NCBI GenBank assembly: GCA_041946855.1
Contig: JBHGBE010000006.1
Span: forward strand, 16,999-80,998
Origin: Phycisphaerae bacterium
Lineage (GTDB): Bacteria; Planctomycetota; Phycisphaerae; SM23-33
DNA: 64,000 bases
Reading direction: 5' to 3'
Below, piece after piece: positions 1 through 64,000 of this stretch (positions within the stretch are counted from its first letter, which is position 1; each line of letters begins with the position of its first letter). The translations under genes and the position numbers were made by a program. The notes below the pieces were generated by a model. The model did not search any database. It worked only from the letters and a program-made list of their open reading frames with translations, and was not told where the DNA came from.

Positions 1-509
1 GCCGTCACGGGCCGGCGCAACTGGTCCCGCAGGCCGTAGGGCAGCGCGTGGTAGACGGCCATCTGCGTATCGATCGCAGGCCTCGGCGGGTCGGTGGGGA
101 AGTTGGGCATGTTGCGGCAGAACGCGGCCGTCACCATAAGCCGCGATGTGTTGGTGTGGTCCTCCATGTAGTCCAGCGGCGAGGGCAGCAGCAGGACCCG
201 CGGCCGGACCTCGCGGACGATCGCGCAGAGCCTGGCCACCAGGCGCGGCTCGTAGTAGATCTGAATGTCATCGGCTAGCGGCGGGTGGAACGTCGCGCCC
301 AGCATCGCGGCCGCCTCCTGCGCCTCACGCGTCCGCGTGGCGATGGTCCGCTCGCGGTTCATCGTCACCGAGCCGCACGAGCCGTTGGCGATGTTCATGT
401 AGTGCAGCTCATACCCGGCGCGGCCGAGCAGCGCCAGCGTGCCGGCCATCATGAACTCGATGTCATCCGGATGGGCGGCGACGGCGAATGCAATCTTGTC
501 CTTGCTCAT
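1..509 (-). CDS. PIG-L/LmbE family deacetylase (partial, 3' end beyond window edge)
   Basis: Reverse translation from ATG (507-509) gives MSKDKIAFAVAAHPDDIEFMMAGTL..., the HPDD motif of LmbE-like deacetylases. The ORF runs off position 1, so it is absent from the supplied track. Confidence 0.7.
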   Translation of the reverse strand, partial: MSKDKIAFAVAAHPDDIEFMMAGTLALLGRAGYELHYMNIANGSCGSVTMNRERTIATRTREAQEAAAMLGATFHPPLADDIQIYYEPRLVARLCAIVREVRPRVLLLPSPLDYMEDHTNTSRLMVTAAFCRNMPNFPTDPPRPAIDTQMAVYHALPYGLRDQLRRPVT

Positions 510-564
510 AGCGCCCGGTTCCCGATCACCAACTCTCCACGCTCCACTCCCCACTCCCTACTCT

Positions 565-1602
565 CTACTTTTTCGCGCCTGTACCACGCGCAAGCGAAAC
601 CGGCTTGCCGGTCTTCACCGACTTCATCTCCGCCTCCACCGTCGCGACCGCGTCGACGGAGGATTCCGGCGGCACGCGGTCTGGCGCCTTGCCCTCCAGC
701 AGGCAGTCGATGAAGTACTTGATCTCGTTGGCGTAGGCGTCGCCTGCCGGCACCGTCTGCGGCTCGGGCTTCGCGCCGTTGCGGCAGACTACCAGCGTCG
801 GCGACTTGGACGAGTCGTACTCAACCGTCGCCTGCTCGAATTCGATGGTCGCGGCCATCGAGAACGGGTAACCGTCGTGGAACCACGCGCCCTCGGCCGT
901 CACCATGTCGATGTCCGCGAAGTCGTACCGGGCGATCACGTGCGACACGCCGCCGTCGGCCGTTACCGTGCCGGCCGCGCGGACGCGCGAGGGCTTGCCG
1001 AAGAACCACTGCGCCGTGTCCACGTCGTGTATGTGCATGTCCAGGGCGCAGTGCCCGCTCCGCTTGGAGTCGACGAACCAGTTCTCGAATCCCCATCGCG
1101 GCGTGCCGCCGATCCGCCGGAACGTCGCGCCGCGGACACGCCCATAGCGCTTGGAGTCGATCATCTCCTTGACCGCGACGTACTCCGGCCAGAACCGCAG
1201 GCAGTGGCCGATCATCAGGCCCCGGCCGGCCTTCTTCGCGGCCGCCAGCATGGAACTCGCCTCCTTGGCGGTGCGGGCCATGGGTTTCTCGCAGAAGACG
1301 TGCTTGCCGGCCTTCAGCGCCGCGACGGCCATCTCCGCGTGCAGGTACGTCGGCGTGACGATGACGATCAACTCCAGCGCGCTATCCGCGAGCATGTCCT
1401 CGAACCGCGTGTACTTCTTCGCCCCGCCCAGGTCCACGCGGCCCGCGCCCACGTCGATATTGCCGGCCGTCATCATGCCTTCAAGCCGGTGCGGCTGAAC
1501 GTCGCACACGGCCGCAAGCTCCGCATTGGGCAGCGTGCGGATGTTCTTCGCGTGCATCATCCCCAGGAAACCAAGACCGACTACTCCGACCTTCATAGGC
1601 AT
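565..1602 (-). CDS. Gfo/Idh/MocA family oxidoreductase
   Basis: N-terminal Rossmann motif MKVGVVGLGFLGMMHAKN and a conserved EKP motif (HVFCEKPMA); 345 aa. Confidence 0.85.
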   Translation of the reverse strand: MPMKVGVVGLGFLGMMHAKNIRTLPNAELAAVCDVQPHRLEGMMTAGNIDVGAGRVDLGGAKKYTRFEDMLADSALELIVIVTPTYLHAEMAVAALKAGKHVFCEKPMARTAKEASSMLAAAKKAGRGLMIGHCLRFWPEYVAVKEMIDSKRYGRVRGATFRRIGGTPRWGFENWFVDSKRSGHCALDMHIHDVDTAQWFFGKPSRVRAAGTVTADGGVSHVIARYDFADIDMVTAEGAWFHDGYPFSMAATIEFEQATVEYDSSKSPTLVVCRNGAKPEPQTVPAGDAYANEIKYFIDCLLEGKAPDRVPPESSVDAVATVEAEMKSVKTGKPVSLARGTGAKK

Positions 1603-1637
1603 CGCTTTCTCCAGTTCTCTTCAGAATTGTGGGTCAA

Positions 1638-1810
1638 GTGGAATGGCAGATTAGGAATGAGTAAGTGAGGAAGGAATGCCAAATGCTTGAATGTCAAATG
1701 CTCCGCGACCTGCGAGGCATGGCCCTCGCGTCCAGTACAGCCGATCCCATTTTGGCATTTGTGGATTTGCCATTCCGTCGTCATTTAGTCATTCCCAATT
1801 TGTCATTCGC
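1638..1810. repeat. Palindromic AT-enriched element built from GGAATG/CATTCC heptad units (family 1, copy A), with a central GCGAGG/CCTCGC hairpin
   Basis: Left arm GGAATGGCAGATTAGGAATGAG...AATGTCAAATGC is mirrored by right arm GCATTTGTGG...CATTCCCAATTTGTCATTCGC. It shares the ATTAGGAATGAG and AATTTGTCATTCGC motifs with the element at 29629-29768. Confidence 0.5.
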
Positions 1811-1811
1811 T

Positions 1812-2657
1812 TCATGGCATGATCTTCCTGATCCGCTCGGCCACCGTCCGCAGGAAAGTCATCTCATCGTCATCCGGCCCCGGGAACACCTCGGCTGTGA
1901 CCGGACCTTTGTAGCCCTGCCTGGCCAGCAGTGCAAGGCTCTCGGCCAGCGGCACGTCGCCGTCGAGGAGCTGGCAGAACCCGCTGACGTTGCCGACGGC
2001 CCGCTTGAAGTCCTTGACGTGGACCGCCTTGATCCGCCTTCCAAGGACCTTTATCCAGTGCTGCGGGTAGCCGGTCAGCCAGACGTTGCCCACGTCGAAA
2101 TACGAGCCCGCGCCCTTGCCCGCGGCGTCCACGAAGTCGCGGAACTCCAGCGGGCTGAGGAGGAACCGGTTCCAGACGTTCTCAAAGCATGCGAATACGC
2201 CGAGCTTCGCGGCCGCCTTTGCGACCTTGCGGGCGAAGGCCAGTGCGCGCTTGTGGCAATCGTCGTATGGCACGACCTCGCCGCCGGGCTTGAAGAACAC
2301 ATCCACCGCGCCCGGCAGGACGAGAAGAAACTTCGCGCCCAAGTCTCGCGTCACGCGAAGCGATTTGATGGTGATGTCGAGCGCCCGCTTGCGTGTCGCG
2401 GCGTCGGCGGATGCGGGGTTGGCGTCCCAAAGCAGGCCGCTGGCCGTGGAGGCGATCTTCATGCCCATCGACTTGGCGGCCGCGGAGATCTCGCGGCACT
2501 TGTCCGCCGGGGTGTCGGGCGTGATGTCGCCCTCGGCGGATACGCACAGTTCGATGCCCTCGAACCCGGCCGCCTTGGCCAGGCCGATCGCCTCGATCAC
2601 ATTCCGCTTGCCTGTCGCGCCATCACGAAATGCCCAGTAGCTTATCTGCGTGAACAT
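1812..2657 (-). CDS. Sugar phosphate isomerase/epimerase (xylose isomerase-like TIM barrel)
   Basis: 281 aa. The ...GFEGIELC..., ...HVKD... and ...EVFPGP... motifs resemble AP endonuclease 2/xylose isomerase-like TIM barrel proteins. Confidence 0.75.
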   Translation of the reverse strand: MFTQISYWAFRDGATGKRNVIEAIGLAKAAGFEGIELCVSAEGDITPDTPADKCREISAAAKSMGMKIASTASGLLWDANPASADAATRKRALDITIKSLRVTRDLGAKFLLVLPGAVDVFFKPGGEVVPYDDCHKRALAFARKVAKAAAKLGVFACFENVWNRFLLSPLEFRDFVDAAGKGAGSYFDVGNVWLTGYPQHWIKVLGRRIKAVHVKDFKRAVGNVSGFCQLLDGDVPLAESLALLARQGYKGPVTAEVFPGPDDDEMTFLRTVAERIRKIMP

Positions 2658-2672
2658 CGTCCAGCCTTTCTC

Positions 2673-3941
2673 TCATTCCTTTGCCGGAAGACTCAGAGGG
2701 TCCACGTCAAGGAGTTCCTTCGCCGTCTGCACCGCCAGTTCGACCAGCCGCTCTCCCTCTCCCTGTGCCAGCGGCGTCGTTGCCACCTCGTATCCGCCCC
2801 AGAGGAACTGGTTGGCCGTGGCGATGTAGCCCAGGTTGTCCGTAGCCTGGAAGAGGACGTAGGTCTTGAGGAACGGGCTGGACCACTTGAGGATCGCGCC
2901 CAGCTCCGCGACCGGCTCGCCCGGCATACCGACGAGCAGTATCGGCCCGATTCCCAGCAGGCTGACGGCCGTCTGGATTTCCGTCCGGCCCTGCTGGGCC
3001 CACCACGACAGGCCGCGCTGGTCCCTTCGCGGCAAGAGGTCGGCCGAGCGGCGGTCCTTGACCTTGAGCGTGATGGGCTTCCACGCGAAACGCAGGCGCG
3101 TGTCGTAATCGACAAGGACCGAATCGTAAGTCCGCGTGATGGCCAGGTCGCCGAGATTCGTGCCCATCTTCATCGCGCGGCTGAAGCCAGACTCGGGCAT
3201 CAGCGGATGGTTGTCGCCGGCCGCGCCGGTGGTCGTCAGGGCCATGCTGCCGGCGAATGTGTCCTCGATGGTCCGGCGAATCCAGCCCTGGAAATCGGCC
3301 GAGACCAGGTTTGACGAGTTGCCCACGCACAGCGGGTGCGACGTGTAGTTGGTCACCAGCGCCTTGTACTGGTTGCGCGATCCCGCGCGCCGGAAGGCGA
3401 CCACGCCCAACTCGCGGTCAACGTACTGGTCGGACAGCCCGGCGAGCTGCTTGTTGTCGGGGATGTACAGCCAGCGGCGGTCGGGGAAGATGTACCGCCG
3501 ATTCATGTTCTCGGCGGCGTAGCCGTAGTTGTAGTGCAGCGTACACTCCTCCGCGGAGGCCTTGGCGTCCTTGGCTGCCTGTGCGGACCAGACGGCCAGG
3601 CGCTCGTTGTAGTCCGGCCGCCAGATCTTGGTCGGCCCGGAGTTGAAGTGCTTCTTCCGCACCTCCGGCCCGCTGTGGACGTGCGTGGCGGTGATGAACA
3701 CCTGCTCGGCCGTCAGGCCCGTCGCGTCCGCGACCGCCTGGCGGACCTGGAGGTTGAACTCGGCCTCCAGCCCGATCAGGTCGAACGTCAGCAGGAACGC
3801 CTCCTTCCGGCCGTCGGAAAGGTACATGGCCGTCACGACGATGTCGTCGTGTACGCCCGCGTTAGGGTGGTCGGGCCCGTAGCCCGCGAGGTGGTGGCCA
3901 GGTTCCGGGTTGATGACTCGCCTGCCGACGCCGCAAAGCAT
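2673..3941 (-). CDS. Neutral/alkaline ceramidase-like hydrolase
   Basis: Start moved to Met36 (ATG 3939-3941), preceded by a perfect AAGGAG 7 nt upstream. The N-terminal region HHLAGYGPDHPNAGVHDDIVVTAMYL resembles the neutral ceramidase N-terminal domain. Confidence 0.55.
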   Translation of the reverse strand: MLCGVGRRVINPEPGHHLAGYGPDHPNAGVHDDIVVTAMYLSDGRKEAFLLTFDLIGLEAEFNLQVRQAVADATGLTAEQVFITATHVHSGPEVRKKHFNSGPTKIWRPDYNERLAVWSAQAAKDAKASAEECTLHYNYGYAAENMNRRYIFPDRRWLYIPDNKQLAGLSDQYVDRELGVVAFRRAGSRNQYKALVTNYTSHPLCVGNSSNLVSADFQGWIRRTIEDTFAGSMALTTTGAAGDNHPLMPESGFSRAMKMGTNLGDLAITRTYDSVLVDYDTRLRFAWKPITLKVKDRRSADLLPRRDQRGLSWWAQQGRTEIQTAVSLLGIGPILLVGMPGEPVAELGAILKWSSPFLKTYVLFQATDNLGYIATANQFLWGGYEVATTPLAQGEGERLVELAVQTAKELLDVDPLSLPAKE

Positions 3942-4081
3942 AGTCGCTCCTTTACAGACAAGGGAAAACCGCAACACGATAACGCGAGAAGGGGGGACAT
4001 GCCACTCTTTTGCCGCCGGGACCTGATGTCGCGGCAATACGCGCAATCAAGGCCCGGGACGTCGGCCGCCCGGCGGCGCTC

Positions 4082-7966: not shown

Positions 7967-8458
7967 ATGCCGAAAGTCGAGTTCACCGTCGAGTCGCTCT
8001 CCCAGGTCGTCAGGGCGCAGGGCCTACAGGCCGCGCAGTCGCTTCTGGCCGAAAGGGCCGAGTCGTTGCGCGCGGAAAGGGCCAGGCACCAGCAGAGCAT
8101 TTCGGCGGCCGAGGAAGCTATCAAGGGGATCAACAGCCAGCTTGGCCAGCTTGAAACGCTGCTCATCGGCGGGGTCAAGAAGGCGTCGCAGGAGATGGGA
8201 ATCGTGCTGTCCGCCCCGCCCCGTATGCGGCCCAAGGCCCGGCACATCAAGCAGGCCGAGATTGCCGAGAAGGTCGTCGGATACTTGAAATCCGCCGGCG
8301 AGGGTGGCCTGCCCAAGAAGGCGATCATGGACCAGTTGGCCAAGGTGGACATGACCCCGGCGGAGGAGACGGTCACCAAGGCGCTGGCCGGTCTGATTGC
8401 GGCCGGGGCGGTCCTCCGGGAAGGCGAATCGCGAAGCACTCGCTACAGGGCCGTATAA
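7967..8458 (+). CDS. Hypothetical protein, coiled-coil with possible C-terminal winged-helix
   Basis: ATG preceded by AGGAAGGAG. The 5' part of the track ORF (7622-) overlaps the DUF1559 gene and was trimmed. Competing antisense ORFs exist. Confidence 0.45.
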   Translation: MPKVEFTVESLSQVVRAQGLQAAQSLLAERAESLRAERARHQQSISAAEEAIKGINSQLGQLETLLIGGVKKASQEMGIVLSAPPRMRPKARHIKQAEIAEKVVGYLKSAGEGGLPKKAIMDQLAKVDMTPAEETVTKALAGLIAAGAVLREGESRSTRYRAV

Positions 8459-8519
8459 GGGGGGACCCCAAACGCGAAGTATCGCATTTGGAGTCCCTTC
8501 GCGAGCATGGGAAGATCTC

Positions 8520-8539
8520 GCGGCGGCTTTGGCCGCCGC
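8520..8539 (+). terminator. GC-rich hairpin (GCGGCGGC-TTTG-GCCGCCGC) ~60 nt downstream of the 7967-8458 stop
   Basis: Perfect 8-bp stem seen in sequence. No U-tract follows, which is common in high-GC taxa. Confidence 0.3.
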
Positions 8540-8608
8540 CAAATGCACCTGCGGGGCGGCTCGCCTCGGATGACGCGGCCGCACCGTCCGGGACACGGAG
8601 ACAACACA

Positions 8609-9337
8609 ATGCGCCACGTCATCGTCTGTCTGCTCGCCGCAGTCCTCCTGATGGTCGTTATCGGGATCGTGCTTCAGTCGCATGCACAGACACCCGCCGC
8701 GCCGCCGGCCCTCGGCAAGGTCGAGGAGACGGTGCTGGGGGCTATGCAGGGCCTCAAGCCCATCTGGTCGTCGCTCTTTGTAAGCGAGGACCATTCGCAC
8801 ATGGCCTGCGCCGCGCAGAAGGGCAACAAGTGGTTGGTGGTTGTCGATGGGAAGGCCGGCCAGGAGTATGACGACATCATGAGGGGCTACCCCGTCCTGA
8901 GTCCCGACGGCAAGCGCGTGGCGTATCCCGCCCTACAAGGCAAGAAGTGGGTGATGGTGGTGGACGACAGGACCGGACCGGAGTGCGACGGCGTCTCAAA
9001 GGGCGCATCCATATTCAGTCCCGACGGCAAACGCGCGGCGTACCTGGTCCAGAAAGGGACCAAGTGGTCCGCCGTCGTGGATGGCAAGGCGGGACCGGAA
9101 TATGACGATGTCGCCTGGGGCTTCCCCGTCTTCAGCCCGGACAGCAAGCGCGTCGCGTATCCGGCCAGGAATGGCGAGAAGTGGCTGGTCGTCGTCGATG
9201 ACAAGCCGGGGCCCGAGTACGACGCCGTTCTGAGGAACACGCCGGCCTTCCGCGCCGACGGGACGCTGGAGTACCTGGCCATGAAGGGCGAATCACTCCT
9301 CCGCGTGAAGAGCCCGCCTGTGGAGGCCCCGAAGTAG
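8609..9337 (+). CDS. PD40/TolB-like beta-propeller repeat protein with N-terminal membrane anchor
   Basis: Start at MRHVIVCLLAAVLLMVV with GGAG 8 nt upstream. Four ~32-aa tandem repeats KW(L/V)VVVDxKxGxEYDxV...SPDGKRVAY contain the SPDGKR signature of PD40 repeats. Confidence 0.6.
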   Translation: MRHVIVCLLAAVLLMVVIGIVLQSHAQTPAAPPALGKVEETVLGAMQGLKPIWSSLFVSEDHSHMACAAQKGNKWLVVVDGKAGQEYDDIMRGYPVLSPDGKRVAYPALQGKKWVMVVDDRTGPECDGVSKGASIFSPDGKRAAYLVQKGTKWSAVVDGKAGPEYDDVAWGFPVFSPDSKRVAYPARNGEKWLVVVDDKPGPEYDAVLRNTPAFRADGTLEYLAMKGESLLRVKSPPVEAPK

Positions 9338-9611
9338 ACGCGAACTCCGCTCCACGCCACGCAAGGTTGGCGTCGAAAAGGGGTGGCCGCCGAATTTCGC
9401 TAACTGTCTCCAAACTGCCGTGTCAGTGACTATAGAGGAAGCTGCGAAGTAGCGGAAATCCGCTACTGGATTTCTCCGGCTTTCTAGCCATCGCCACTGC
9501 CGATGTTATAATTAGATTGATCATCCGATGCTCGCTGTGCCGGGCCTTGAGCGCTCGGCGGCAATTCGTGGGACCGGTTTCTTTGACCGAAAACGTGGGT
9601 GAGGACGGACC

Positions 9612-11033
9612 ATGAAAAAGGCATGGACAGCAGCAGTCTTCGTAACCGCGATGGGAATCCTGGCCTCGGTCGCCGGCGCGCAGACACGCCCGGCGGCCCG
9701 CACCGCCCAGGATGACAACACCGCGGCCATGGTAAAGGCGATCAACTCGGCACAAGACCCCTCCGCGGCCGTGCAGGCTTACGCCGACGCGATGGCGGGC
9801 GGCCGCAAGGACCTCAAGGTCCAGCGCGCCTACATCCGCAAGATGGTCGATCTCGGCTCGCCGGAGATGGCCTACTCGCAGGCGCTGACAATGGTGGCCC
9901 TGGACCCCAACAACGGCCTGGCCTGGGCCGTCATCGCCTACGTCTCGGCGCGAAAAGGCGAGGCGGCGGCCGCACTGTCGAACATCTCCCTGGCGGCACA
10001 GAACTTCCCGGATGATCCGTTCATCCAGCGGACGGCGGCCCAGCTCATCGCCTGGTACGACAGCAAGCCGCACCCCGAGCTTGCCGAGGGCGTCAAGCTC
10101 CTGGTCGCCCGGCTGCGGGCCCGCATGGTCAACATGCCCGTCTACGCGCAGGCGTACAAGGAGACGATGGCTGCGTACAACGAATTGACCAAACAGCAGG
10201 GCCAGCCGCCTGCCGCGTCGCAGCCCGCACAGGTCGCCGGCAACCAGGGGGTCGGCCCCGCCGGCCAGCAGCAGCCCGGTGACATGGGCATCGGCGGCTA
10301 TTACGGCTACCCCCTGTATCCGTTCTGGGGCGGGGGATGGGGCTGGCCGTGGTGGGGCGGAAATGACTTCTTTTTCCGTCACCACGGGCGTGACTGCGGC
10401 GCATGGAGCAGCATCTGGCTGGCCGACGGGAGCGTGATACCGTTCCGTGACGGCCAGACGATCCTCTTCAGCAACGGGCAGCCGTTCGCCGTCGTCGGAC
10501 CCAACGGCCGGTTCTGGGGCTGGGGCGATGGCGGGGGCCGATCGCACCACGGTGAAGGCAATCGCGATGGGCGCTCGCACGGTGGCGAGGGGAGTCACGG
10601 CGGGGCCGGCGCCGACACCAACGCCCTGAGCCCGGAGATGAACGTCGCCTCGGCGCGGTCGCACACGGCCGCGTCAGGCATGAACATACTCATCGGCAAC
10701 CACTCGGAGCCCAGGTCGAAACACAACGGCATCCTGTTCAGCGGCTCTTCCGGGTACCTGGCAATCCAGGTGAGAGACCCCTTCGGCCGCAGCCTGGGCG
10801 CTTCGGCATGGGGCCGCGCCGGGACGAGTCTCGGCCGCTCAAGCCAGGTGTTCAATTTCACCGGCTCGACCTTCGGCGGGCCATCGCGGACGATTAGCGC
10901 CGGCGCTGGCGTCGCGCCGAACATCGTTGCCGGTCGGATCGTCGGAGGCGGCTTTGGCGGCGTGCTGAACGCCACGCCCTCTATGACCGTTGGCGACGGT
11001 GGCTTTGCAGGCGGGCGATTGGGGGTCAGGTGA
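9612..11033 (+). CDS. Secreted protein with TPR-like domain and Gly/Trp-rich disordered C-terminus
   Basis: Signal peptide MKKAWTAAVFVTAMGILASVAGAQT. Its central domain is homologous to that of the convergent gene 11224-12855. C-terminal low-complexity region GGYYGYPLYPFWGGGWGWPWWGG...GRSHHGEGNRDGRSHGGEGSHGG. Confidence 0.6.
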   Translation: MKKAWTAAVFVTAMGILASVAGAQTRPAARTAQDDNTAAMVKAINSAQDPSAAVQAYADAMAGGRKDLKVQRAYIRKMVDLGSPEMAYSQALTMVALDPNNGLAWAVIAYVSARKGEAAAALSNISLAAQNFPDDPFIQRTAAQLIAWYDSKPHPELAEGVKLLVARLRARMVNMPVYAQAYKETMAAYNELTKQQGQPPAASQPAQVAGNQGVGPAGQQQPGDMGIGGYYGYPLYPFWGGGWGWPWWGGNDFFFRHHGRDCGAWSSIWLADGSVIPFRDGQTILFSNGQPFAVVGPNGRFWGWGDGGGRSHHGEGNRDGRSHGGEGSHGGAGADTNALSPEMNVASARSHTAASGMNILIGNHSEPRSKHNGILFSGSSGYLAIQVRDPFGRSLGASAWGRAGTSLGRSSQVFNFTGSTFGGPSRTISAGAGVAPNIVAGRIVGGGFGGVLNATPSMTVGDGGFAGGRLGVR

Positions 11034-14621: not shown

Positions 14622-14708
14622 CTGGGGACTGTCCCGCCGTTTGGGACTGTCCCCAGTTGCCAGGCCACGGCAGCCGGGGACAGTCCCAAACGACGGGACA
14701 GTCCCGGG
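14622..14708. repeat. REP-like long hairpin element (GGGACTGTCCC family, copy 1)
   Basis: 31-bp arms GGGGACTGTCCCGCCGTTTGGGACTGTCCCC and GGGGACAGTCCCAAACGACGGGACAGTCCCGG are reverse complements with one mismatch, separated by a 21-nt loop. A near-identical element lies at 57251-57342. Confidence 0.6.
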
Positions 14709-17085: not shown

Positions 17086-17092
17086 CCCGGCC

Positions 17093-20332: not shown

Positions 20333-20360
20333 GATGGCACACATCACAGGGAGACATGTC

Positions 20361-49723: not shown

Positions 49724-49754
49724 TGCAGTCGCCGGGAAGATCTGAGAAAGAACG

Positions 49755-50512: not shown

Positions 50513-50526
50513 TTGCGAGGAATTGG

Positions 50527-50982
50527 ATGTCCGGCAAACTGAAGATTCTGTTCCTCTGCACCGGCAACTCCTGCCGAAGCCAGATGGCCGAGGGCTGGGC
50601 CCGCGCCTTGAAGGGCGACGTGATCGAGCCATCCTCGGCCGGAATCGAGGCATTCGGCCTCCATCCCCTGGCCGTCAAAGTGATGGCGGAGGCGGGAGTG
50701 GACATCTCGCGCCAGCGATCCAAGAACGTCGCGGAACTGGCCGAGGTCCCTTTCGATTACGTCGTCACCGTCTGCGGCCACGCGAACGAGTCGTGCCCCG
50801 CGTGGCTCGGACGGAAGGCCCGCGTCGTCCACGTCGGCTTCGACGACCCGCCGACGCTGGCGATGCACGCCAAATCCGAGGAAGAGGCCCTCGGCCACTA
50901 TCGCCGCGTGCGCGATGAGATCAAGGCGTTCATCCTCACGCTGCCGGGTGCGTTGAAACCCAACAAGGAGCGCAAGCTATGA
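50527..50982 (+). CDS. arsC: Arsenate reductase, LMW-PTP family (thioredoxin-coupled)
   Basis: P-loop [13 protein letters not shown] and downstream Cys pair [10 protein letters not shown]. Confidence 0.85.
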
Positions 50983-52115
50983 CCGAAGGTATCGCCAGGA
51001 AACTCTCCTTCCTCGACCGCTTCCTGACCCTGTGGATCTTCCTCGCGATGGCCGCCGGCGTGCTGCTTGGCTACGTCGCCCCGGCCGTCGGCGACTGGAT
51101 CGGCTCGCTCAAGCCCGAAGGCTCGCAGACCAGCATCCCCATCGCCGCGGGCCTCATCCTGATGATGTACCCGCCCCTGGCAAAGGTGAAGTACGAGGAG
51201 CTCGGCGACGTCTTCCGCAACGTCAAGGTCCTGGCCCTCTCGCTCCTCCAGAACTGGGTCATCGGCCCGATCCTGATGTTCGCCCTGGCCATCGCCTTTC
51301 TGCACGGCAGGCCGGCGTTCATGATCGGCCTGATCATGATCGGCCTGGCCCGCTGCATCGCCATGGTCATCGTCTGGAACGAGCTGGCCGAAGGCGACAC
51401 CGAGTACGCCGCCGGCCTTGTCGCCTTCAACTCGATCTTCCAGGTCTTCTTCTACAGCGTCTACGCCTGGCTGTTCATCACCGTCCTGCCGCCGATGCTC
51501 GGCTTGGCGGGCGCCGACACCTCCGCCATCACCATCGGCCAGATCGCCAAGAGCGTCTTGACCTACCTGGGCGTGCCGTTCCTGGCCGGCATGCTCACGC
51601 GGCTTGTGCTCGTCAAGGCCAAGGGCAAGGCCTGGTATCACGGCCGGTTCATCCCCAAGATCAGCCCGATCACGCTCGTCGCCCTGCTCTTCACCATCGT
51701 GGTCATGTTCTCGATGCAGGGCCGCAAGATTATCGACCGCCCCGGCGACGTGCTGCTGATCGCACTGCCGCTACTGATCTATTTCGTAGTCATGTTCCTG
51801 TCGAGCTTCTGGATGAGCTGGAAGGCCGGCGCCGGCTACGCGCGGAGCGCGACGCTGTCCTTCACGGCCGCCAGCAACAACTTCGAGCTGGCCATCGCCG
51901 TGGCCGTCGGCGTCTTCGGCATCCACCACGGCGCGGCGTTCGCGGCCGTCATCGGCCCGCTCGTCGAAGTGCCGGTCCTCATCGGCCTGGTGAACGTGAG
52001 CCTGTGGCTCAAGCGCAGGTGGTTCGCCGGCGAGGCCGCCCAGATCCAGGGCGTCGGTGCGTGCGCCACCGGCGGCCGGCCCATCCTCAATAGAGACAAA
52101 GTTCCAGAGCAATGA
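50979..52115 (+). CDS. acr3: Arsenite efflux transporter, ACR3 family
   Basis: 10-TM BART-superfamily sequence with ...[22 protein letters not shown]...; ATGA overlap with arsC. Confidence 0.85.
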
Positions 52116-52140
52116 ACCAGCAAGTTGAAGGAGCCACGAA

Positions 52141-52992
52141 ATGACAGAGCTCAACGCCCACGAAGTCGTCAAGAACGCCTACGCCGAGGTCGCCCGCAGG
52201 CAGTCATCCTGCTGCGGACCGAGCAAGTCCTGTTGCGACGACAGAAAGCCCTACACCGTGCCAGATCATCCCGTGCCGGAGTCGGAGCTGGGCCTGTCGT
52301 GCGGGAACCCGCTGGCCTTCGGGCACATCAAGCCCGGCGACGTGGTGCTGGACCTGGGCAGCGGGGCCGGCAAGGATGTCTTCCTGGCCGCTCAGAAGGT
52401 GGGCGACGCCGGCCGTGCCATCGGCGTGGACATGACGCCCGAGATGCTCGTCCTGGCCCGCAAGAACGCCGTCAAGTTCTTCGCGACCACCGGCCTGGCC
52501 AACGTCGAGTTCCGCCAGGGGCAGATCGAGTCCCTGCCCGTGGACGATGGCTCGGTGGACGTGGTGATCTCCAACTGCGTCATCAACCTCTCGCCCGACA
52601 AGCCGCGGGTCTTCCGCGAGGTGCATCGCGTCCTCAAGTCCGGCGGCCGAATGGTCGTCAGCGACATCGTGCTCAACCGGCCGCTGCCGGAGGCCGCCCG
52701 CGAAGACGCCGACCTGTACTCTTCCTGCATCGGCGGGGCGCTGCTGCGCGATGACTACCTCGCGGCCGTCCGCGCCGCCGGGTTCGTCAGAGTGGAAGTG
52801 CTGTCCGACACGACGTACGGTGCCTCGCGTGCGAACGTGGCGTGCAACGATCCCATCCTCGCCGCCGCGACCGGCGGGAACGACTCGGCCTGTGGCGACA
52901 CGGCCGGCGACACGTCCGCTGGCGACAAGGCCGCCCCGGCCGATGCCTTGGCCGGCGTCGCGGCCAGCATCACCGTACTGGCCGTGAAATGA
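52141..52992 (+). CDS. arsM: Arsenite S-adenosylmethionine methyltransferase
   Basis: N-terminal Cys pairs SSCCGPSKSCCDD, SAM motif VLDLGSGAGKDVF, catalytic Cys in VISNCVINL. Confidence 0.85.
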   Translation: MTELNAHEVVKNAYAEVARRQSSCCGPSKSCCDDRKPYTVPDHPVPESELGLSCGNPLAFGHIKPGDVVLDLGSGAGKDVFLAAQKVGDAGRAIGVDMTPEMLVLARKNAVKFFATTGLANVEFRQGQIESLPVDDGSVDVVISNCVINLSPDKPRVFREVHRVLKSGGRMVVSDIVLNRPLPEAAREDADLYSSCIGGALLRDDYLAAVRAAGFVRVEVLSDTTYGASRANVACNDPILAAATGGNDSACGDTAGDTSAGDKAAPADALAGVAASITVLAVK

Positions 52993-53276: not shown

Positions 53277-54959
53277 CTACATTTTCCGGCTGTGTTCCAG
53301 GACGTGCTTCAGATCGGCACAGACTTTGTTCACCTGGCGGTCCTTCAGTTCCAGGATGTCGCGCAGCGCCTCGCCGATCGCGGGGATGTATTTCTCGATG
53401 TAGGACCGTTTCTTCATCTCATCGTGGATGCGGACGGTCTTACGGATGTGAGTGCCGAGCTTCCGGCCGCACTCCTGGAGCGCCAGCCGGATTTCCTTCA
53501 GGATTTCCGGGTAGGACGCGATGGCCTCCTTCGACTCGCTGGTGAACGGCACCCAGACGCTGGCCATGTGGACGACCACGGTCAGCGGTCCCTCGGGCAG
53601 AGCGCCGCGAGCCTGCGTGATGCCGTACTGCCGCCAGTTGAGCGTGACCACCGACTTGTAGATGGAGCACGCCGACTGCTGATATAGCAGCGGCACGCGG
53701 TTGGCGAAGCGGATGAGCTTGGCGAGTTCGGAAGTCTCCTCTTCGTCATCGGCGGCGACGGCCGGCGCGGCGGCGGGGGCCTCGGCGCCGTTGCCGTTGG
53801 CCTCCCGGTCCTGATCTTCCGGCGAGTTGCCGGCCGTCTTCGCGCCGGCGGACTTCGCGCCGGCCGTTGCGGTCTGGGAATCTTCCGGCTGCTCCGGTTT
53901 GCCGTATGCGATGGCGGCCTCGATGATGAACGGGTTTCCGCGGTAGACGGCCGGGCTGCGGCTGGTGGCCACGTAGAACTCGGCCTCGACCACCTGCTTC
54001 AGTCCGCCGATGAGCTGCTCCTCGCCGATGGGCACGACGCAGTCGGTTGATGGCGCCATGATCCGCGTCTGCTGTATCGCGTTGTAGATCGCGCGGGCCT
54101 CCTCGCCGCCCAGGCGTGATGGCCGCTGGTCGGGGGAGAGATTCGCCTTCTGGCAGACCTCCAGCGCCACGCGCGGCGAGACGCGGGAGAACTCGCTCGA
54201 CAGGAAGTGGCGGAGCGTGCGGCTGCGGCTGTCGGTGAGCATCTTGATGAGCACGCCCAGCTCGATTCCGTGCGGGTGCGGGCGGATGGCCTTTGGCGGC
54301 GGCGGCAGCGATTTGTGGCTGGCCTCGTACCTGTCCGCCCGGCTGTCGGGCGCGTGGTAGACCAGCGTGACGTGCGGGTTGGCGATGGCCGTCTGCTGGA
54401 GGTAGTCATCCACGCTCTGCCGGCCGCGCTGATACTTGGCCTCAAGCTCGATCTCGACGCGCGTGCCGTGGGGCACGTCCCAATCGACCTGGTCTTCCTT
54501 GATGACGTCGGGCGTGTTGCGGCTGGTGTCGATCTGGAGCTCGCAGTAGAGGGCCTTGCCTCGCGGGTTGTGTCGCGAGGTGATGCGGACCGGCCGGCCG
54601 GTGGTCAGCAGGCCGTACATGCCCGCGGCCGAGATGCCGATGCCCTGCTGGCCGCGGCTCATCCGCAGGCGGTGGAACTTCGAGCCGTAGAGCAAGCGGC
54701 CGAAGATGTTGGGGATTTCCTTGCGGACGATGCCGGGGCCGTTGTCCTGGACGATGACCTTGAAGTGCGTCTCGTCGAGCTGCTCGATCCAGATCTCGAC
54801 GGCCGGCAGGATGCCGGCCTCCTCGCAGGCGTCGAGCGAGTTGTCGACGGCCTCCTTCACGGTGGTCAGGAGCGCCTTGCGGGGATTGTCGAAGCCGAGC
54901 AGGTGGCGGTTCTTGGCGAAGAACTCGCTGACGGAGATGTTCCGCTGTGCCTTGGCCAT
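53277..54959 (-). CDS. top6B: DNA topoisomerase VI subunit B (alternative upstream ATG at 55206-55208 would give a 644-aa ORF)
   Basis: GHKL/Bergerat ATPase motifs (EAVDNSLDA, DNGPGI, GQQGIGISAAGMYG), H2TH and transducer domains. Start chosen at MAKAQRNISVSEFF to match the archaeal Top6B N-terminus (…SPAEFF…). The upstream 250 nt are packed with heptamer repeats. Confidence 0.75.
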   Translation of the reverse strand: MAKAQRNISVSEFFAKNRHLLGFDNPRKALLTTVKEAVDNSLDACEEAGILPAVEIWIEQLDETHFKVIVQDNGPGIVRKEIPNIFGRLLYGSKFHRLRMSRGQQGIGISAAGMYGLLTTGRPVRITSRHNPRGKALYCELQIDTSRNTPDVIKEDQVDWDVPHGTRVEIELEAKYQRGRQSVDDYLQQTAIANPHVTLVYHAPDSRADRYEASHKSLPPPPKAIRPHPHGIELGVLIKMLTDSRSRTLRHFLSSEFSRVSPRVALEVCQKANLSPDQRPSRLGGEEARAIYNAIQQTRIMAPSTDCVVPIGEEQLIGGLKQVVEAEFYVATSRSPAVYRGNPFIIEAAIAYGKPEQPEDSQTATAGAKSAGAKTAGNSPEDQDREANGNGAEAPAAAPAVAADDEEETSELAKLIRFANRVPLLYQQSACSIYKSVVTLNWRQYGITQARGALPEGPLTVVVHMASVWVPFTSESKEAIASYPEILKEIRLALQECGRKLGTHIRKTVRIHDEMKKRSYIEKYIPAIGEALRDILELKDRQVNKVCADLKHVLEHSRKM

Positions 54960-54997
54960 CTGCTCGGCCGTGGCGAAGGGGCGCTTGGCCGGCAGGT

Positions 54998-55122
54998 CGG
55001 ATTGTGGATGGCGGATTGCGGATTGCGGATTGATCGCCTGGACGGCCGGCGGAGCTTTCGCGGCGGGCTTGCCCGGCTTGGCCGGAGGCGATTTCGGATT
55101 TCGGATTTCGGATTTCGGATTG
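54998..55122. repeat. Two tandem CGGATT(G/T) heptamer arrays (x5 and x4.5) in the top6B / GT2 divergent region
   Basis: TCGGATTGTGGATGGCGGATTGCGGATTGCGGATTGA (54998-55034) and CGATTTCGGATTTCGGATTTCGGATTTCGGATTG (55089-55122). The unit is identical to the feoB-internal element. Confidence 0.6.
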
Positions 55123-55346
55123 CCCGCCGCAAGCGCTTTGGCGGCCCTCTTGTCGGCCCTTGGTCCCTCGTCGCTAGTCCCTAGTCGCTTACTTGGCTTC
55201 TTGGCCATCCGTGGCGTCCCTGATGTTGAAGGTCTGCACATCAACTTCCAGCGTAATCTATGCGGTTTGCACCCGGCCGTCAAGCGATGGCAATTGCGGT
55301 CCGCCTGGAGGTTTTCACGCCCGCCGGTGCGCGGTATCATGTGCTA

Positions 55347-57246: not shown

Positions 57247-57250
57247 AGTA

Positions 57251-57342
57251 CCGGGGACTGTCCCGTCGTCTGGGACTGTCCCCAGTTGTTATTCCCGAGG
57301 GTAACCGGGAGCAGTCCCACACTGCGGGACGGTCCCCGACGG
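57251..57342. repeat. REP-like long hairpin element (GGGACTGTCCC family, copy 2) between convergent stops
   Basis: CCGGGGACTGTCCCGTCGTCTGGGACTGTCCCC-AGTTG...-CCGGGAGCAGTCCCACACTGCGGGACGGTCCCCGACGG. Same arms and same AGTTG loop start as copy 1 at 14622-14708. Confidence 0.6.
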
Positions 57343-57351
57343 CCAGCGTTT

Positions 57352-58448: not shown

Positions 58449-58493
58449 ATTGCAGATTGTAGATTGCAGATTGCAGATTGGCATACTGCAATC
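58449..58493. repeat. GCAGATT heptamer array (x4) filling the permease-ATPase intergenic gap
   Basis: ATTGCAGATTGTAGATTGCAGATTGCAGATTG plus inverted partner GCATACTGCAATC, within the 53 nt between stop 58497 and ATG 58443. Confidence 0.6.
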
Positions 58494-62123: not shown

Positions 62124-62184
62124 GTGGTCGCTCCTGCGGCACATTAGACGCGGCGACCGCAGGGGATGCAAGACCTTGGTGAAG

Positions 62185-62270
62185 GGACTGGGGGCGAGCG
62201 ACTGGCGACTAGGAGGACCGAACGCTTGGCCACTGACCTCGATCGCCTAGTCGCTAGTCCCTCATCCGTC
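62185..62270. repeat. GCGACTR heptamer / GGGACTAGCGACTAGG palindromic element (family 3) in the pyrE / lepB divergent region
   Basis: AGGGACTGGGGGCGAGCGACTGGCGACTAGG...CCTAGTCGCTAGTCCCT. Related copies at 33629-33662 (GAGCGACTAGCGACCAGGGGG) and 55160-55195 (CGTCGCTAGTCCCTAGTCGC). Confidence 0.5.
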
Positions 62271-62329
62271 CCTCTCCTCATGCGAATTTGCTTGGCCCGG
62301 CCGTCGCCGTCCGCTATCCTTCGGGGTTC

Positions 62330-64000
62330 ATGGGTAAGGCCAACGTCAAGACGTCCAGGGACATCCAGACGGACTACAACGCCGTCCGCGACATGGTCGA
62401 AAGCATCTGGATCGCCATTGTCCTGGCGTTCGTCCTGCGGGCGTTCTTCATCGAGGCGTTCATAATCCCGACCGGCTCGATGGCCCCGCGGCTGATGGGC
62501 GAGCACTGGGACCTTCAGTGCCCCTCCTGCGGGTACGAATACGCCTACGGCTGGCCCTCGAACATCCCGCAGCCTCCTCGCAGCCAGAAGCGCATCCCCG
62601 AAGGCGCCCGCTGCCCTAACTGCGGCTTCACGTACACCAACCGCCAGACGGGGAGCAAGGAGCAGTTCGTCAACGCCGGCGACCGCGTCCTGGTGATGAA
62701 GTACCTCTACGACTTCCGAGACCCCCAGCCGTGGGACGTGGTGGTCTTCCGCAACCCACAGAACAACCGCGAGAACTACATCAAGCGCCTTGTCGGCCTG
62801 CCCGGCGAGAGCATCGAGATCGTCCACGGGGACATATTCTACAAGTCCGGCCCTCCGGACAGCAGTGATCCCTGGCGGATCCGGCGCAAGCCCAAGAAGG
62901 CCCAGGACGCCATGTGGCAGGTCGTGTTCGACAACGACTACCGCCCGGCCGACGATCCCTCAGGCAAGGGCTGGGGCAAGCCCACCGGCGAGTGGGACCT
63001 GGCCAAGTTTGACGGGAGGCGGTTCGAGTTCGCGGGCACGCGGGAAGGCACGATTGAGTTCATGGCCGACGAAAGCGCCTTCCTCCCTCGGTACGGCTAC
63101 AACCTCCCAAGGAGCGAGAGGGACTTCATCGACGATGTTCGGGACATCTGCACGGACCTGAAGCTGGCCGTCACTTTCGTCCCCAAGGCTGAGGACGCCA
63201 GGGTCAGCCTGGAACTGTCGAGCTTCGAGGACCGCTTCCGCGCCGAGGTCGGCGCGGACGGCACGATCGCCGTCAAGCACTCGCCCCGGCTCGATGGGGA
63301 TGAATGGGAGACTTGGCCGGCCAAGGGGATCGAGCGGATGGCCGTCGGGCGCGGGCATGAGATCGCCCTGACCAACGTCGATTTCCGCCTCACACTGTGG
63401 GTGGACGACAAGCCGGTCTTCGAGAGCACTGACGATCAATACCCGCACGCCACGAACGCCCACGACTATCTGACGGCCAGGATGGCCGACGCATCCCGTA
63501 CGGCCGTGCCCAGACCGGAGGTGCGAATCGGCGCATCCGGCGGCGCGAGCGAGCTGCTCCATGTCAGGCTCATGCGCGATGTTTACTACACCTCCGGCCG
63601 GACCGACTCGATCAGCGACACCGCGCTGTGTGAGTTCGCGAAGGATCTGGGCGCGAGGCCCGGAGAGCCGGGCTGGGGTTCGATGGGCAACCCGATCTAC
63701 CTGGAGCGCCATCCGGAGGACAAGGATCTCGACCCGTTCTTCGTGCTGGGGGACAACAGCCCGCAGAGCCTGGATGGGCGGTGCTGGACGAAGGCCGCGC
63801 CGACGCTCAGGTTATGGAAGCATCCGGACTGGAATCATGCCGAGATGAAGCCGAGTCAGAATCGGGAGGATGCGCTATACGAGCTTGGGACCGTGCCCCG
63901 GTACAACTTGACCGGCAGGGCGCTGTTCGTCTACTGGCCCAGCGGCTTTCGCATCCCCGGTCTGGAAGGCTTGCCCATCATCCCCAACGTCGGTAGGATG
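62330..64000 (+). CDS. lepB: Signal peptidase I with internal zinc-ribbon insertion (partial, continues beyond window end)
   Basis: TM anchor IWIAIVLAFVLRAFFIEAFIIPTGSMAP (catalytic Ser), ...NYIKRLVGLPGE... (Lys box), ...VLGDNSPQSLDGR.... CPSCGYEY...CPNCGFTY insert after the Ser box. No stop codon before 64000. Confidence 0.8.
   Translation, partial: MGKANVKTSRDIQTDYNAVRDMVESIWIAIVLAFVLRAFFIEAFIIPTGSMAPRLMGEHWDLQCPSCGYEYAYGWPSNIPQPPRSQKRIPEGARCPNCGFTYTNRQTGSKEQFVNAGDRVLVMKYLYDFRDPQPWDVVVFRNPQNNRENYIKRLVGLPGESIEIVHGDIFYKSGPPDSSDPWRIRRKPKKAQDAMWQVVFDNDYRPADDPSGKGWGKPTGEWDLAKFDGRRFEFAGTREGTIEFMADESAFLPRYGYNLPRSERDFIDDVRDICTDLKLAVTFVPKAEDARVSLELSSFEDRFRAEVGADGTIAVKHSPRLDGDEWETWPAKGIERMAVGRGHEIALTNVDFRLTLWVDDKPVFESTDDQYPHATNAHDYLTARMADASRTAVPRPEVRIGASGGASELLHVRLMRDVYYTSGRTDSISDTALCEFAKDLGARPGEPGWGSMGNPIYLERHPEDKDLDPFFVLGDNSPQSLDGRCWTKAAPTLRLWKHPDWNHAEMKPSQNREDALYELGTVPRYNLTGRALFVYWPSGFRIPGLEGLPIIPNVGRM

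Follow-up and report, generated by a model that had tools for sequence, protein, structure and literature searches.

In the 64-kb window (the whole stretch of DNA analysed here, from a planctomycete MAG of the Phycisphaerae), tandem repeats with a 7-nt unit are dispersed over many loci, and they belong to a repeat class that has been described before in cyanobacteria, Xanthomonas, Geobacter and Beggiatoa. We give about an even chance to the reading that they are STRR-type heptanucleotide simple-sequence arrays, together with palindromic modules built from them, and that they form a fast-turnover class at the level of DNA and not a designed switch.

The initial annotation had proposed AT-enriched period-7 arrays at a dozen or more loci, and this is borne out: by eye and with Tandem Repeats Finder, we find 14 repeat loci in 64 kb (the scope for the source genome; genome-wide pervasiveness rests on relatives), which hold 2 to 10 tandem units of 7 nt each, with a single locus built on an 8-nt unit. 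Under one scoring rule for all periods, with expectations from Markov-3 simulations, seven window arrays score 12 or more at period 7, where 0.05 would be expected, and periods 4 to 6 and 8 to 13 yield no such array. For exact repeats of two or more copies, the counts are 16 (period 7), 3 (period 8) and 3 (period 9). Head-to-tail 7-nt units in at least 2-3 copies (Tandem Repeats Finder and our own scan), enrichment both over chance and over adjacent unit lengths, and many dispersed, mostly intergenic loci place the arrays among the heptanucleotide simple-sequence repeats. Their GC content is 0.31 to 0.64, against 0.65 for the window. All of the motifs that had been listed are present: GCGGAAT/GCGGATT (27360-27449, 54998-55032), GCAGATT (58449-58480), GCGATTG and a 14-mer (31142-31185), CAATGTT and TTGAATA (35709-35789, 23219-23257), GGAATGA (1621-1811, 29600-29800), GCAGAAG (37212-37292), GCGACTA (62187-62275, 55163-55189) and the 8-mer (16608-16697). 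That the motif changes from locus to locus holds insofar as at least eight motif classes in 64 kb share one period, but three classes (GCGGATT, TAGTCSC and TTGAATA) recur, each at two loci, and two of the palindromes are one family.

Some loci are direct arrays. About 5.4 units, of GGAGAGT type on the sense strand, fill the spacer from the stop codon of a GFO/IDH/MocA oxidoreductase gene (565) to the ATG of a PIG-L deacetylase gene (506) at 532-569 (minus strand). The array at 31142-31185 (no strand assigned) repeats the 14-mer TCGTCAATCGCAAA 3.1 times; it is composed of two related heptamers, with a 96% match at period 14 versus 75% at period 7, and it adjoins the stop codon of a Band-7 gene, with a GC-rich hairpin alongside. 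The divergent region between a topoisomerase VI B (Topo VI-B) gene and a GT2 gene contains five copies of CGGATTG (54998-55032, minus strand; AATCCGC on the Topo VI-B sense strand), which are predicted to be unstructured (z 0.3), and a perfect array of 4.6 copies of GATTTCG (55090-55121, minus strand). A short array of 3.4 GTCCCTA/GTCGCTA units (55163-55189, no strand assigned) shares its motif class with a hairpin at 62187-62275, and 4.6 copies of ATTGCAG (58449-58480, minus strand; CAATCTG on the sense strand) lie in the 50-nt spacer from an ABC permease stop codon to an ABC ATPase ATG, ending 8 nt short of that ATG. Several arrays abut start codons, at 58449-58480, 37212-37292 and 532-569 in the window and at 9959-9994 in a relative, L164; as in Beggiatoa, this position hints at function.

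Inverted arms, which had been described as common, occur at 8 of the 14 loci, and at five of these the predicted fold is much stronger than that of shuffled sequences (z −4.3 to −9.2). A hairpin at 27360-27449 (minus strand; −68 kcal/mol, z −8.5) has two 31-nt arms of 4.4 GCGGAAT/GCGGATT units each, which are 97% complementary and separated by 27 nt. At 16608-16697 (plus strand, z −4.25), the arms are built from the 8-nt units GAGGACAG and CCTCCCGT, 4.2 copies of each. An AT-rich palindrome of TTGAATA/TTGATTA units (23206-23288, no strand assigned, z −5.7) sits between convergent genes with stop codons at 23213 and 23320, and an imperfect hairpin of AT-rich heptamers, running from CAATGTT to TTGAATA (35700-35790, plus strand, z −5.9), occupies the spacer between a PSD1/DUF1553 gene and a DUF1501 gene. 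Two further elements are copies of one 150-170 nt palindromic family: copy A (1621-1811, minus strand), whose arms (GCGAATGNCAAATTAGGAATGAG...) are degenerate GAATGNN heptamers, lies in the co-directional spacer between an AP_endonuc_2 gene and an oxidoreductase gene, and copy B (29600-29800, minus strand; −70 kcal/mol, z −9.2), a near-perfect 148-nt hairpin, is flanked by HSP20 and TruB genes. The locus at 37212-37375 (plus strand, z −3.0) combines an AAGGCAG-type array of about 10 degenerate units, which covers a spacer and the start-codon region of a PPC-domain gene (37212-37292), with an inverted CTGCCTT-type arm (37320-37375) that codes for the signal peptide of that gene. The hairpin at 62187-62275 (no strand assigned, z −2.8), with GGGACTG/GCGACTG/GCGACTA arms, is located where a phosphoribosyltransferase gene and a signal-peptidase gene diverge.

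Placement is strongly skewed toward non-coding DNA, which holds 12 of the 14 loci although it makes up 7.8% of the window (binomial P 4e-12). The other two are in frame within protein linkers, namely the hairpin at the junction of the G domain and the helical domain of FeoB (27360-27449) and the 8-nt-unit arms in a cytoplasmic linker of an ABC-2 permease (16608-16697, in the ORF at 15880-17085). These inserts lack a codon-position GC signature (GC3 of 0.50 in FeoB, with flanks of 0.82-0.93, and 0.52 in the permease, with flanks of 0.80-0.95) and are missing from most homologues; about 160 homologous loci, like most database homologues, lack the roughly 24 extra residues of FeoB. A FeoB orthologue from another sample (L163, 70% identical) nonetheless carries a heptamer hairpin at the same site, also in frame, and a sulfite-reductase-like protein of Poribacteria likewise contains an in-frame palindromic insertion. 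The inserts have neither an element sequence nor an encoded peptide in common; they differ in motif, and the peptides are a three-frame readout of each heptamer.

The same preference for 7 extends beyond the window. Arrays scoring 12 or more at period 7 number 7 in the window, 7 in L164 and 9 in the unrelated Poribacteria locus L100, against 0-1 at other periods, and in L164 heptamers stand in most of the larger spacers. Period-7 arrays are also found in the relatives L163, L002 and L003, in a second Poribacteria locus (L165) and in Geobacteraceae, with 14-mers in L100 and L163. In 2.26 Mb of unrelated bacterial loci, 7 is the commonest non-triplet period, with 37 arrays versus 0-6 at periods 4, 5, 6, 8, 10 and 11. 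The earlier suggestion of a period-specific process in place of one transposon is upheld by this pattern of many motifs and one period in the window, its relatives, Poribacteria and Geobacteraceae, and by the published excess of heptanucleotides. Strain-level relatives of the window genome are absent from the collections, and orthologous loci of more distant genomes were compared. Both copy number and sequence vary among them: the window and L163 have different FeoB modules; one of two 85%-identical Poribacteria orthologues (L100 and L165) may carry a whole hairpin module that the other lacks, without target-site duplication; and in an orthologous Geomonas spacer, both arms have changed in concert, from CGTTCAA/TTGAACG to CGTTCTA/TAGAACG.

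Heptanucleotide repeats are described as the most abundant class of long repeats in most bacterial genomes, and polymerase slippage has been proposed as their origin (PMC4679880, PMC4692102). In the model we favor, arrays would lengthen and become uniform in 7- or 14-nt steps, through replication slippage or unequal exchange, with the preference for 7 being a property of the replication machinery, as proposed by Mrázek and colleagues. Slippage alone would leave 7 over 5, 6 or 8 unaccounted for, and that step of our model is borrowed from the published hypothesis. Inverted arms may arise, and stay complementary, by intrastrand template switching of the kind known as quasi-palindrome correction. 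Two-armed hairpins within ORFs are difficult to reach in 7-nt steps without frameshifts, so an en-bloc route of insertion is needed, and we posit that whole modules can be gained and lost without target duplication. Selection would be mainly a filter, admitting lengths divisible by three in ORFs and otherwise spacers and linkers only; transcribed hairpins would be incidental structured spacers in polycistronic mRNAs, some of which may have been co-opted. For 20 hairpins, the two strands fold with equal stability, a result that suits symmetry at the DNA level more than selection on a single RNA strand. A scan of 20001-40000 for intrinsic terminators (a short GC-rich stem and then a T run) picked out none of the six heptamer loci in that interval, its total being at the level of shuffles, and the window has no Rfam family match at gathering score. 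Three observations count against the model: several arrays abut start codons, the FeoB insert has persisted across about 30% protein divergence, and identical motifs are found across distant lineages slightly more often than expected (5 vs 1.16).

Could the arrays instead be cis-regulatory platforms? In this reading, which we consider unlikely, a protein with a 7-nt footprint would occupy each unit and tune translation initiation, antitermination or promoter activity, with hairpins in competition; candidate binders would be cold-shock-domain or S1-type proteins on single-stranded RNA or DNA and ribbon-helix-helix proteins on duplex heptads. Such a footprint would directly account for the period. 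Precedent is provided by the omega repressor of pSM19035, which binds 7-bp heptads, both direct and inverted. Further precedents are Bacillus subtilis CspB, described as binding heptamer repeats with one protein per heptamer (PMC4679880), and the Vibrio cholerae ctxAB promoter, where TTTTGAT heptad repeats are described as recruiting regulators (10.1101/2021.05.14.444153). The position of several arrays directly upstream of start codons, the predicted lack of structure in the direct arrays of the Topo VI-B leader and the recurrence of a few motifs in the window and its relatives would also fit. However, so many unrelated motifs would need many specificities, or one with almost none, and our analysis turned up no candidate for the binding protein. 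The motifs have no consistent orientation to transcription (the sense strand reads AATCCGA in the Topo VI-B leader but TTTCGGA at L164 21925-21954), the arrays are not kept in orthologous spacers (the DtxR-FeoB junction of the window is unlike that of L164), motifs are shared within one mismatch no more than by chance (25 vs 21.7 ± 4.4), and the 20 hairpins have no folding bias toward the sense strand.

Alternatively, the hairpins may be non-autonomous mobile elements, moved in trans without target duplication by, for example, an HUH/Y1 transposase of IS200/IS605 or RAYT type, with the direct arrays as decayed half-elements; we think this rather improbable. The possibility of an element family, raised in the initial annotation, stands in part: one palindromic family is dispersed as two copies in the window (the only two elements with the terminal inverted repeats of a MITE), and modules come and go among relatives, as with a clean 90-nt module of L165 that is missing from L100, and the reverse case. 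The hairpins of L100 have arm motifs in common and related A-rich loops, and the in-frame insertions resemble Rickettsia palindromic elements (PMC10969869). Target-site duplications were found neither at the window elements nor at the empty and filled sites of L100 and L165, which would fit single-strand transposition but is unlike a MITE, and the 64-kb window contains no transposase, reverse transcriptase or tRNA gene. The motif and loop are different in most hairpins of the window, which hence are not copies of one master, and no conserved target or cleavage motif was seen where insertions begin and end. At one Poribacteria site, different heptamers in both orthologues suggest local turnover more than insertion. 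The 7-nt substructure would also be left unexplained. With similarly low confidence, we speculate that a dedicated, putative mechanism writes heptamer hairpins, each a short loop flanked by two inverted arrays of 4-5 units, without target duplication in Phycisphaerae, Poribacteria, Geobacteraceae and cyanobacteria, recurrently at permissive sites (the linker between the FeoB domains, for example), thereby making new protein linkers and even splitting genes.

We regard as very improbable the proposal, also made from the sequence at the outset, that the arrays are contingency loci in which reversible changes of one 7-nt unit would switch genes, either by frameshift (FeoB, ABC-2 permease) or through the spacing of promoter or leader to start codon. 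Seven is not divisible by three, two arrays lie in ORFs and several beside start codons, and tandem repeats in 5' leaders are described as causing phase variation in other bacteria (PMC4679880, PMC12721329). Yet both in-ORF cases are in frame, FeoB in two lineages 70% identical; the affected genes are housekeeping and transport genes of a free-living organism and not surface antigens; and the arrays have few units, fewer than rapid switching would favor. Copy-number variants were not observed, and the two assemblies of the sample agree exactly, though both are consensus assemblies from the same reads. That the arrays are assembly or scaffolding artefacts, as mis-assembly of short repeats and palindromes in metagenome bins might suggest, can be dismissed with near certainty, and for the loci covered the evidence already refutes it: over 26712-32504, which spans three loci, Logan contigs from SRR29307520 match at 100% identity, the NCBI protein record P0121 contains the FeoB insert, and like arrays occur in independent samples and assemblers (L163, L164, L100, L165, L002, L003).

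How do simple-sequence arrays and modules of this kind compare with known systems? REP/BIME elements, too, are small palindromes outside genes, found where the neighbouring genes are co-directional or convergent, with a possible role in mRNA structure. REPs are conserved palindromes of 20-40 nt that number in the hundreds and are associated with RAYT transposases, without a tandem heptamer substructure; the window modules differ in having one. Rickettsia palindromic elements and other in-frame MITEs are also palindromic modules of about 90-150 nt that sit in frame at linkers of unrelated housekeeping proteins without destroying them, but they form families with conserved sequence and peptide (PMC10969869), whereas the modules here encode no conserved peptide and are simple-sequence hairpins with a 7-nt substructure, lacking an architecture of terminal inverted repeats and target duplication.

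Closer to the window are the heptamer repeats of other bacteria. Geobacter metallireducens has multi-copy elements of 4-5 heptamers (GGACCGG x4, MTYCTGA x5), intergenic and intragenic and sometimes in inverted pairs, as here, and a like paired or tandem pattern is seen in Geomonas and Geobacteraceae loci; the G. metallireducens elements are annotated as conserved families of putative regulatory sites (PMC2700814), whereas most arrays of the window have a sequence of their own. The TAACTGA direct repeats described in Beggiatoaceae likewise lie a few nucleotides 5' of start codons in spacers, with occasional in-ORF copies at protein peripheries and motifs common to several phyla; the binders put forward there were cold-shock, S1 and CsrA proteins, and a single dominant motif, inverted in 1 of 170 cases, contrasts with the many motifs and frequent hairpins of the window (PMC4679880). 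In Xanthomonas (GGGAATC) and Nostoc (GGGGA(C/T)T), the heptamers described are also intergenic, some are convergent inverted pairs, and the motif shape, a G-rich half plus A/T, is similar to that of GCGGAAT and GCGGATT; the Xanthomonas and Nostoc repeats contain G3-4 runs and are candidates for G-quadruplexes (PMC4692102). The window motifs have no such runs, and a quadruplex reading does not apply to them. A strict assignment to cyanobacterial STRRs, that is, the few fixed heptamers STRR1-3 of heterocystous cyanobacteria, is likewise ruled out by the Phycisphaerae host and the at least eight motif classes. Compared with the three classical STRRs, the window, at 65% GC, has more motif classes per kilobase, inverted pairs at over half of its loci and two loci in frame in proteins. 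With the broader class, as described for the STRRs of Calothrix and Nostoc and the long SSRs of Mrázek 2007 (PMC4679880, PMC4692102), it has in common the 7-nt unit, the many dispersed intergenic loci, the excess of period 7 over neighbouring periods and the variability of copy number and sequence between relatives.

Under a single scoring rule applied to every period, with expectations taken from Markov-3 simulations, the window holds seven strong arrays (score of at least 12) at period 7, against 0.05 in the simulations, and none at periods 4 to 6 or 8 to 13; the few arrays scored at periods 14, 15, 18, and 21 are a double heptamer or coding triplet repeats. Exact repeats of at least two copies number 16 at period 7 and 3 each at periods 8 and 9, arrays of at least three exact copies occur (among periods above 4) at period 7 only, and the autocorrelation of the noncoding sequence has its maxima at lags 7, 8, and 14. 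Tandem Repeats Finder places period-7 arrays at every locus named in the initial annotation, which had ascribed them to a period-specific process rather than to one transposon; that reading is borne out and agrees with the literature. The arrays are AT enriched, as had been proposed, with a GC content of 0.31 to 0.64 against a window mean of 65%. Assembly artifacts had been named as a possible source, and here an independent assembly speaks for real sequence: Logan contigs (SRR29307520) are 100% identical to the window over 26712-32504 and 41269-45155, and the first of these spans takes in three loci, namely, the FeoB hairpin, the 29.6-kb palindrome, and the 31.1-kb array.

Twelve of the 14 loci lie within the noncoding 7.8% of the window (curated gene limits; P = 4e-12). 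Inverted arms, which had been claimed for many loci, are present at eight, five of which fold much better than shuffled sequences: the FeoB hairpin (-68 kcal/mol; z, -8.5), 29625-29772 (-70 kcal/mol; z, -9.2), 23200-23295 (z, -5.7), 35690-35800 (z, -5.9), and 16596-16705 (z, -4.3). The claim does not extend to the topoisomerase VI B leader, where the arrays are direct and are predicted by folding to be unstructured. Likewise, the motif does change among many of the loci, with the exception of three units that each occur at two: GCGGATT (27360-27449 and 54998-55032), TAGTCSC (55163-55189 and 62246-62275), and TTGAATA (23241-23256 and 35773-35788). Two further sites, 1621-1811 and 29600-29800, hold the two copies of a single palindromic family whose arms are conserved.

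The genes around these arrays are ordinary chromosomal ones. The window has a GC content of 65% and a flat skew, and it encodes planctomycete hallmark families (PSCyt2/PSD1, DUF1501, and a DUF1559 type IV pilin-like protein) together with PutA, FeoAB and a DtxR-type repressor, topoisomerase VI B, ABC transporters, and an arsenic/thioredoxin cluster. No transposase or reverse transcriptase was found in the 64 kb, and Rfam and tRNA scans of the window gave zero matches. In short codirectional spacers, three arrays sit near the next start codon (532-569, 37212-37292, and 58449-58480); the last stops 8 nt short of the ATG, and the array at 37.2 kb has an inverted partner that encodes the signal peptide of the following gene. 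Four palindromes take up either a longer spacer or the space where convergent genes meet, and three direct arrays occupy the divergent region between the topoisomerase VI B and glycosyltransferase genes. A dense single-strand cluster at 39898-52992 forms a 13-kb metal or arsenic resistance block, with genes for a DGC-domain protein, an Fe-S protein, a thioredoxin-MerB fusion, a thioredoxin, DsbD, an ArsP-type permease, HlyD/MacB efflux, ArsR, a low-molecular-weight (LMW) phosphatase, an ACR3-type SBF transporter, and a methyltransferase. No heptamer array occurs in this block, which fits arrays needing spacers. Between convergent genes and directly adjoining the 14-mer array there is also a GC-rich, nonheptameric hairpin (31058-31129; 31-nt arms, 94% complementary; -67 kcal/mol; z, -10), probably a transcript-end structure.

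The topoisomerase VI B subunit gene (53277-54958), with HATPase_c and Topo-VIb transducer domains, is here found in a bacterial genome. Its mechanical open reading frame (ORF), 53277-55340, is about 127 codons longer than the gene solely because the upstream heptamer arrays contain no stop codon; the Topo VI-B domains start downstream of the arrays, and the conserved N terminus is at the ATG near 54958. The long stop-free frames across the arrays are thus not coding. Arrays of this kind mislead gene callers by generating long ORFs free of stops and odd insertions of low complexity, and the cases here are the FeoB linker and the topoisomerase VI B and ABC ATPase leaders, which are read as fake N termini.

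The initial annotation had also placed arrays in coding regions, and it is correct that they occur there, albeit in two cases only, both in frame. In FeoB, the ORF runs through a 90-nt hairpin between the G domain and the helical domain; the insert adds about 24 residues in alignment with the six closest loci, is missing by match length from 160 of 160 fetched loci, and has a third-codon-position GC (GC3) of 0.50 against 0.82 to 0.93 in its flanks. In an ABC-2 permease, an 8-mer hairpin (16608-16697) lies in a cytoplasmic linker with a GC3 of 0.52 against 0.80 to 0.95 in the flanks, and the ORF goes on past it to a C-terminal membrane helix. Since both cases are in frame, the suggestion that copy-number change acts as a frameshift switch finds no support. 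Steps of 7 nt within an ORF would produce frameshifts, so each in-ORF module most likely came as one block with a length that is by chance divisible by three.

Relatives carry comparable insertions at the same linker. Within the protein collection, the FeoB closest to that of the window (P0122, encoded at locus L163; 70% identical), which comes from a different sample, has an in-frame heptamer hairpin at the same site, with a left arm of (ATTGCGG/ATTGCGA) x4.7, a right arm of (CAATCTG/AAATCTG) x4.6, and a 14-nt higher-order period. Other FeoB homologues, at 60 to 67% identity, have linkers that are short or that bear other repeats, and the best match in the species-representative collection is 62 to 63% identical. 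A repeat of a 24-nt unit x5.3 with a GGGCGAGACGCC motif lies in frame at the same site in P0129, the FeoB of a second relative (L164; 22 kb, 64% GC), the membrane part of which is 69% identical to that of the window. The GGGCGAGACGCC motif of this linker repeat (10564-10720 of L164) is shared with the PutA linker of the window, where it is held in a 125-nt imperfect palindrome (18693-18817; 60-nt arms, 73% complementary) between the Pro_dh and Aldedh domains of an ORF (17093-20239) that stays open. With the GGGCGAGACGCC repeats, this lineage may have a second type of in-frame repeat element.

By the same rule, L164 has seven strong period-7 arrays, whereas Tandem Repeats Finder gives about 15, and heptamers occur in most of its larger spacers; ACTCCTG x5 ends 6 nt before the FeoB start, and a complementary CAGGAGT array lies 300 nt upstream. 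Two other relatives carry a GCGGATT array (L002) and AGGGACA/AGCGACA (L003), motif classes that are both found in the window too. Palindromes of other kinds are present as well. L164 has at least five copies of a palindromic element of about 130 nt (GGAAAGTAGGGAC...GTCCCTACTTTCC) within its 22 kb (13480-13610, 15072-15215, 16990-17100, 19170-19300, and 19310-19440), and duplicated palindromes flank a 63-amino-acid ORF there (12161-12609). In the window, the 11-nt palindrome GGGACTGTCCC has 15 matches (at most one mismatch, both strands) against 1.8 expected, and it clusters at 14619-14705 and 57247-57351, in one case upstream of an ABC ATPase gene and in the second between convergent genes; copies are 18 nt apart within each arm, and each cluster forms a larger palindrome. 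These clusters are a REP-like family and are distinct from heptamer arrays; GGGACTG, however, is a unit of the hairpin at 62187 too.

In 2.26 Mb of DNA at 160 FeoB-anchored loci of diverse bacteria, there are 37 period-7 arrays, against 1, 0, 6, 5, 3, and 2 at periods 4, 5, 6, 8, 10, and 11 and 14 and 9 at periods 9 and 12, and the dominance of heptamers is therefore general. Their density is 109 per Mb in this lineage and 16 per Mb in the 160 loci, a difference of about 7 times. At orthologous loci, where a comparison of copy numbers had been proposed, the arrays differ. Geobacteraceae loci carry GAACGTT and GAACGTA arrays in inverted pairs, and in an orthologous intercistronic hairpin of Geomonas (L024, L030, and L027; about 20550-20810) both arms have changed, from CGTTCAA/TTGAACG to CGTTCTA/TAGAACG, around a loop that cannot be aligned between species. 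A "Candidatus Poribacteria" locus (L100) has nine strong period-7 arrays in 20.5 kb, and it has five (GATTGNN)n hairpins whose A-rich loops are related. Its FeoB (8373-10571) is encoded as two ORFs, one for the G domain and one for the membrane domain, split exactly at the linker that bears the in-frame hairpin in the window and in L163; the 140-nt spacer holds a heptamer hairpin and a new ribosome-binding site, and the split may be a gene fission at a repeat insertion site. In the same locus, a sulfite reductase-like protein fused to TusA (1510-4053) contains three in-frame repeat insertions that its homologues lack. The orthologue in a second Poribacteria locus (L165, 15-2531), 85% identical, does not have the GATTGTC hairpin and carries, at a different site and in frame, one clean module of 90 nt, (GGAATTC)n-AAAAAAC-(AAATCCG)n; the module sites of both loci are free of visible target-site duplications.

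In total, the data fall into three layers. The first is local array growth and homogenization; higher-order 14-nt periods, identical variant units side by side, and unit-by-unit differences between orthologous arrays form the pattern that slippage or unequal exchange produces. The second is a coupling of the two arms: in the FeoB hairpin of the window, ATT and AAT variant units follow each other in mirrored order in the two arms, with the exception of one unit, and in Geomonas the arms switched motif jointly. Either selection for pairing or a correction of one arm with its partner as the template would have this effect. The third is the gain and loss of whole modules, within ORFs as well as from one close orthologue to another; no target-site duplication was found at any boundary examined. 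None of the three layers accounts for a unit of 7 nt. To our knowledge, a single idea on the length of the unit has been published (Mrázek et al. 2007, as relayed in PMC4679880 and PMC4692102), namely, that 7 nt matches the stretch of DNA that the replicative polymerase holds. The main alternative is a protein whose footprint spans 7 nt: in heptamer repeats, each unit is bound by one cold-shock protein, and heptad operators are known to exist. Among distant lineages, identical motifs are shared 5 times against 1.16 expected (maximum of 6 in 300 shuffles), while sharing within one mismatch is at chance level; a convergence of motifs is suggestive only.

Selection on one RNA strand, through G-U pairs in the sense strand, is without support: in 20 hairpins, sense and antisense folding energies differ in both directions (-11.6 to +15.2 kcal/mol), and this roughly equal folding of the two strands favors a process at the level of DNA. 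A common GATTG/CAATC core across phyla occurs at 4 of 24 array-bearing loci, not above other pentamers. Heptamers chosen to lack stops on both strands are contradicted by TTGAATA, CAATGAT, and CTGACTC, which by eye contain TGA; G-quadruplexes, as proposed for Xanthomonas, do not suit window motifs without G3-4 runs; and a consensus scan for intrinsic terminators over 20001-40000 caught no heptamer hairpin, nor were terminator-like features found at the hairpins.

In bacteria, an excess of 7-base tandem repeats was recorded in cyanobacteria as early as 1990 and in many genomes in 2007. We know of no mechanism for it that has been tested since, and its cause is a 35-year-old loose end. The present lineage offers a GC-rich, noncyanobacterial example with arrays that contrast sharply with the background, as well as several natural experiments: the FeoB hairpin kept in frame across two lineages, the turnover of modules in the parallel Poribacteria cases, and the concerted arms of Geomonas. 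These useful cases could separate models of slippage, templated insertion, and protein binding.

How do the arrays compare with known systems? They have all the defining features of heptanucleotide simple-sequence repeats. They are not short tandemly repeated repetitive (STRR) sequences in the strict sense, which is tied to host and to fixed motifs, nor are they MITEs, given that target duplication is absent, and they depart from the intrinsic-terminator pattern. Among the closest matches, Xanthomonas GGGAATC and Nostoc GGGGAYT repeats include inverted pairs and differ between species (PMC4692102), and the TAACTGA repeats of Beggiatoaceae directly precede start codons and also occur at the peripheries of proteins (PMC4679880). 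The in-frame inserts act like Rickettsia palindromic elements (PMC10969869), but without a conserved element sequence. The closest matches also include the heptanucleotide elements of Geobacter metallireducens (PMC2700814) and heptamer-derived satellites such as (GATAGRA)n of Chloroflexus (PMC6749651). To them belong, too, the STRR heptamers of cyanobacteria and the excess of heptanucleotide repeats in general, and the window is a Phycisphaerae instance of this already known phenomenon.
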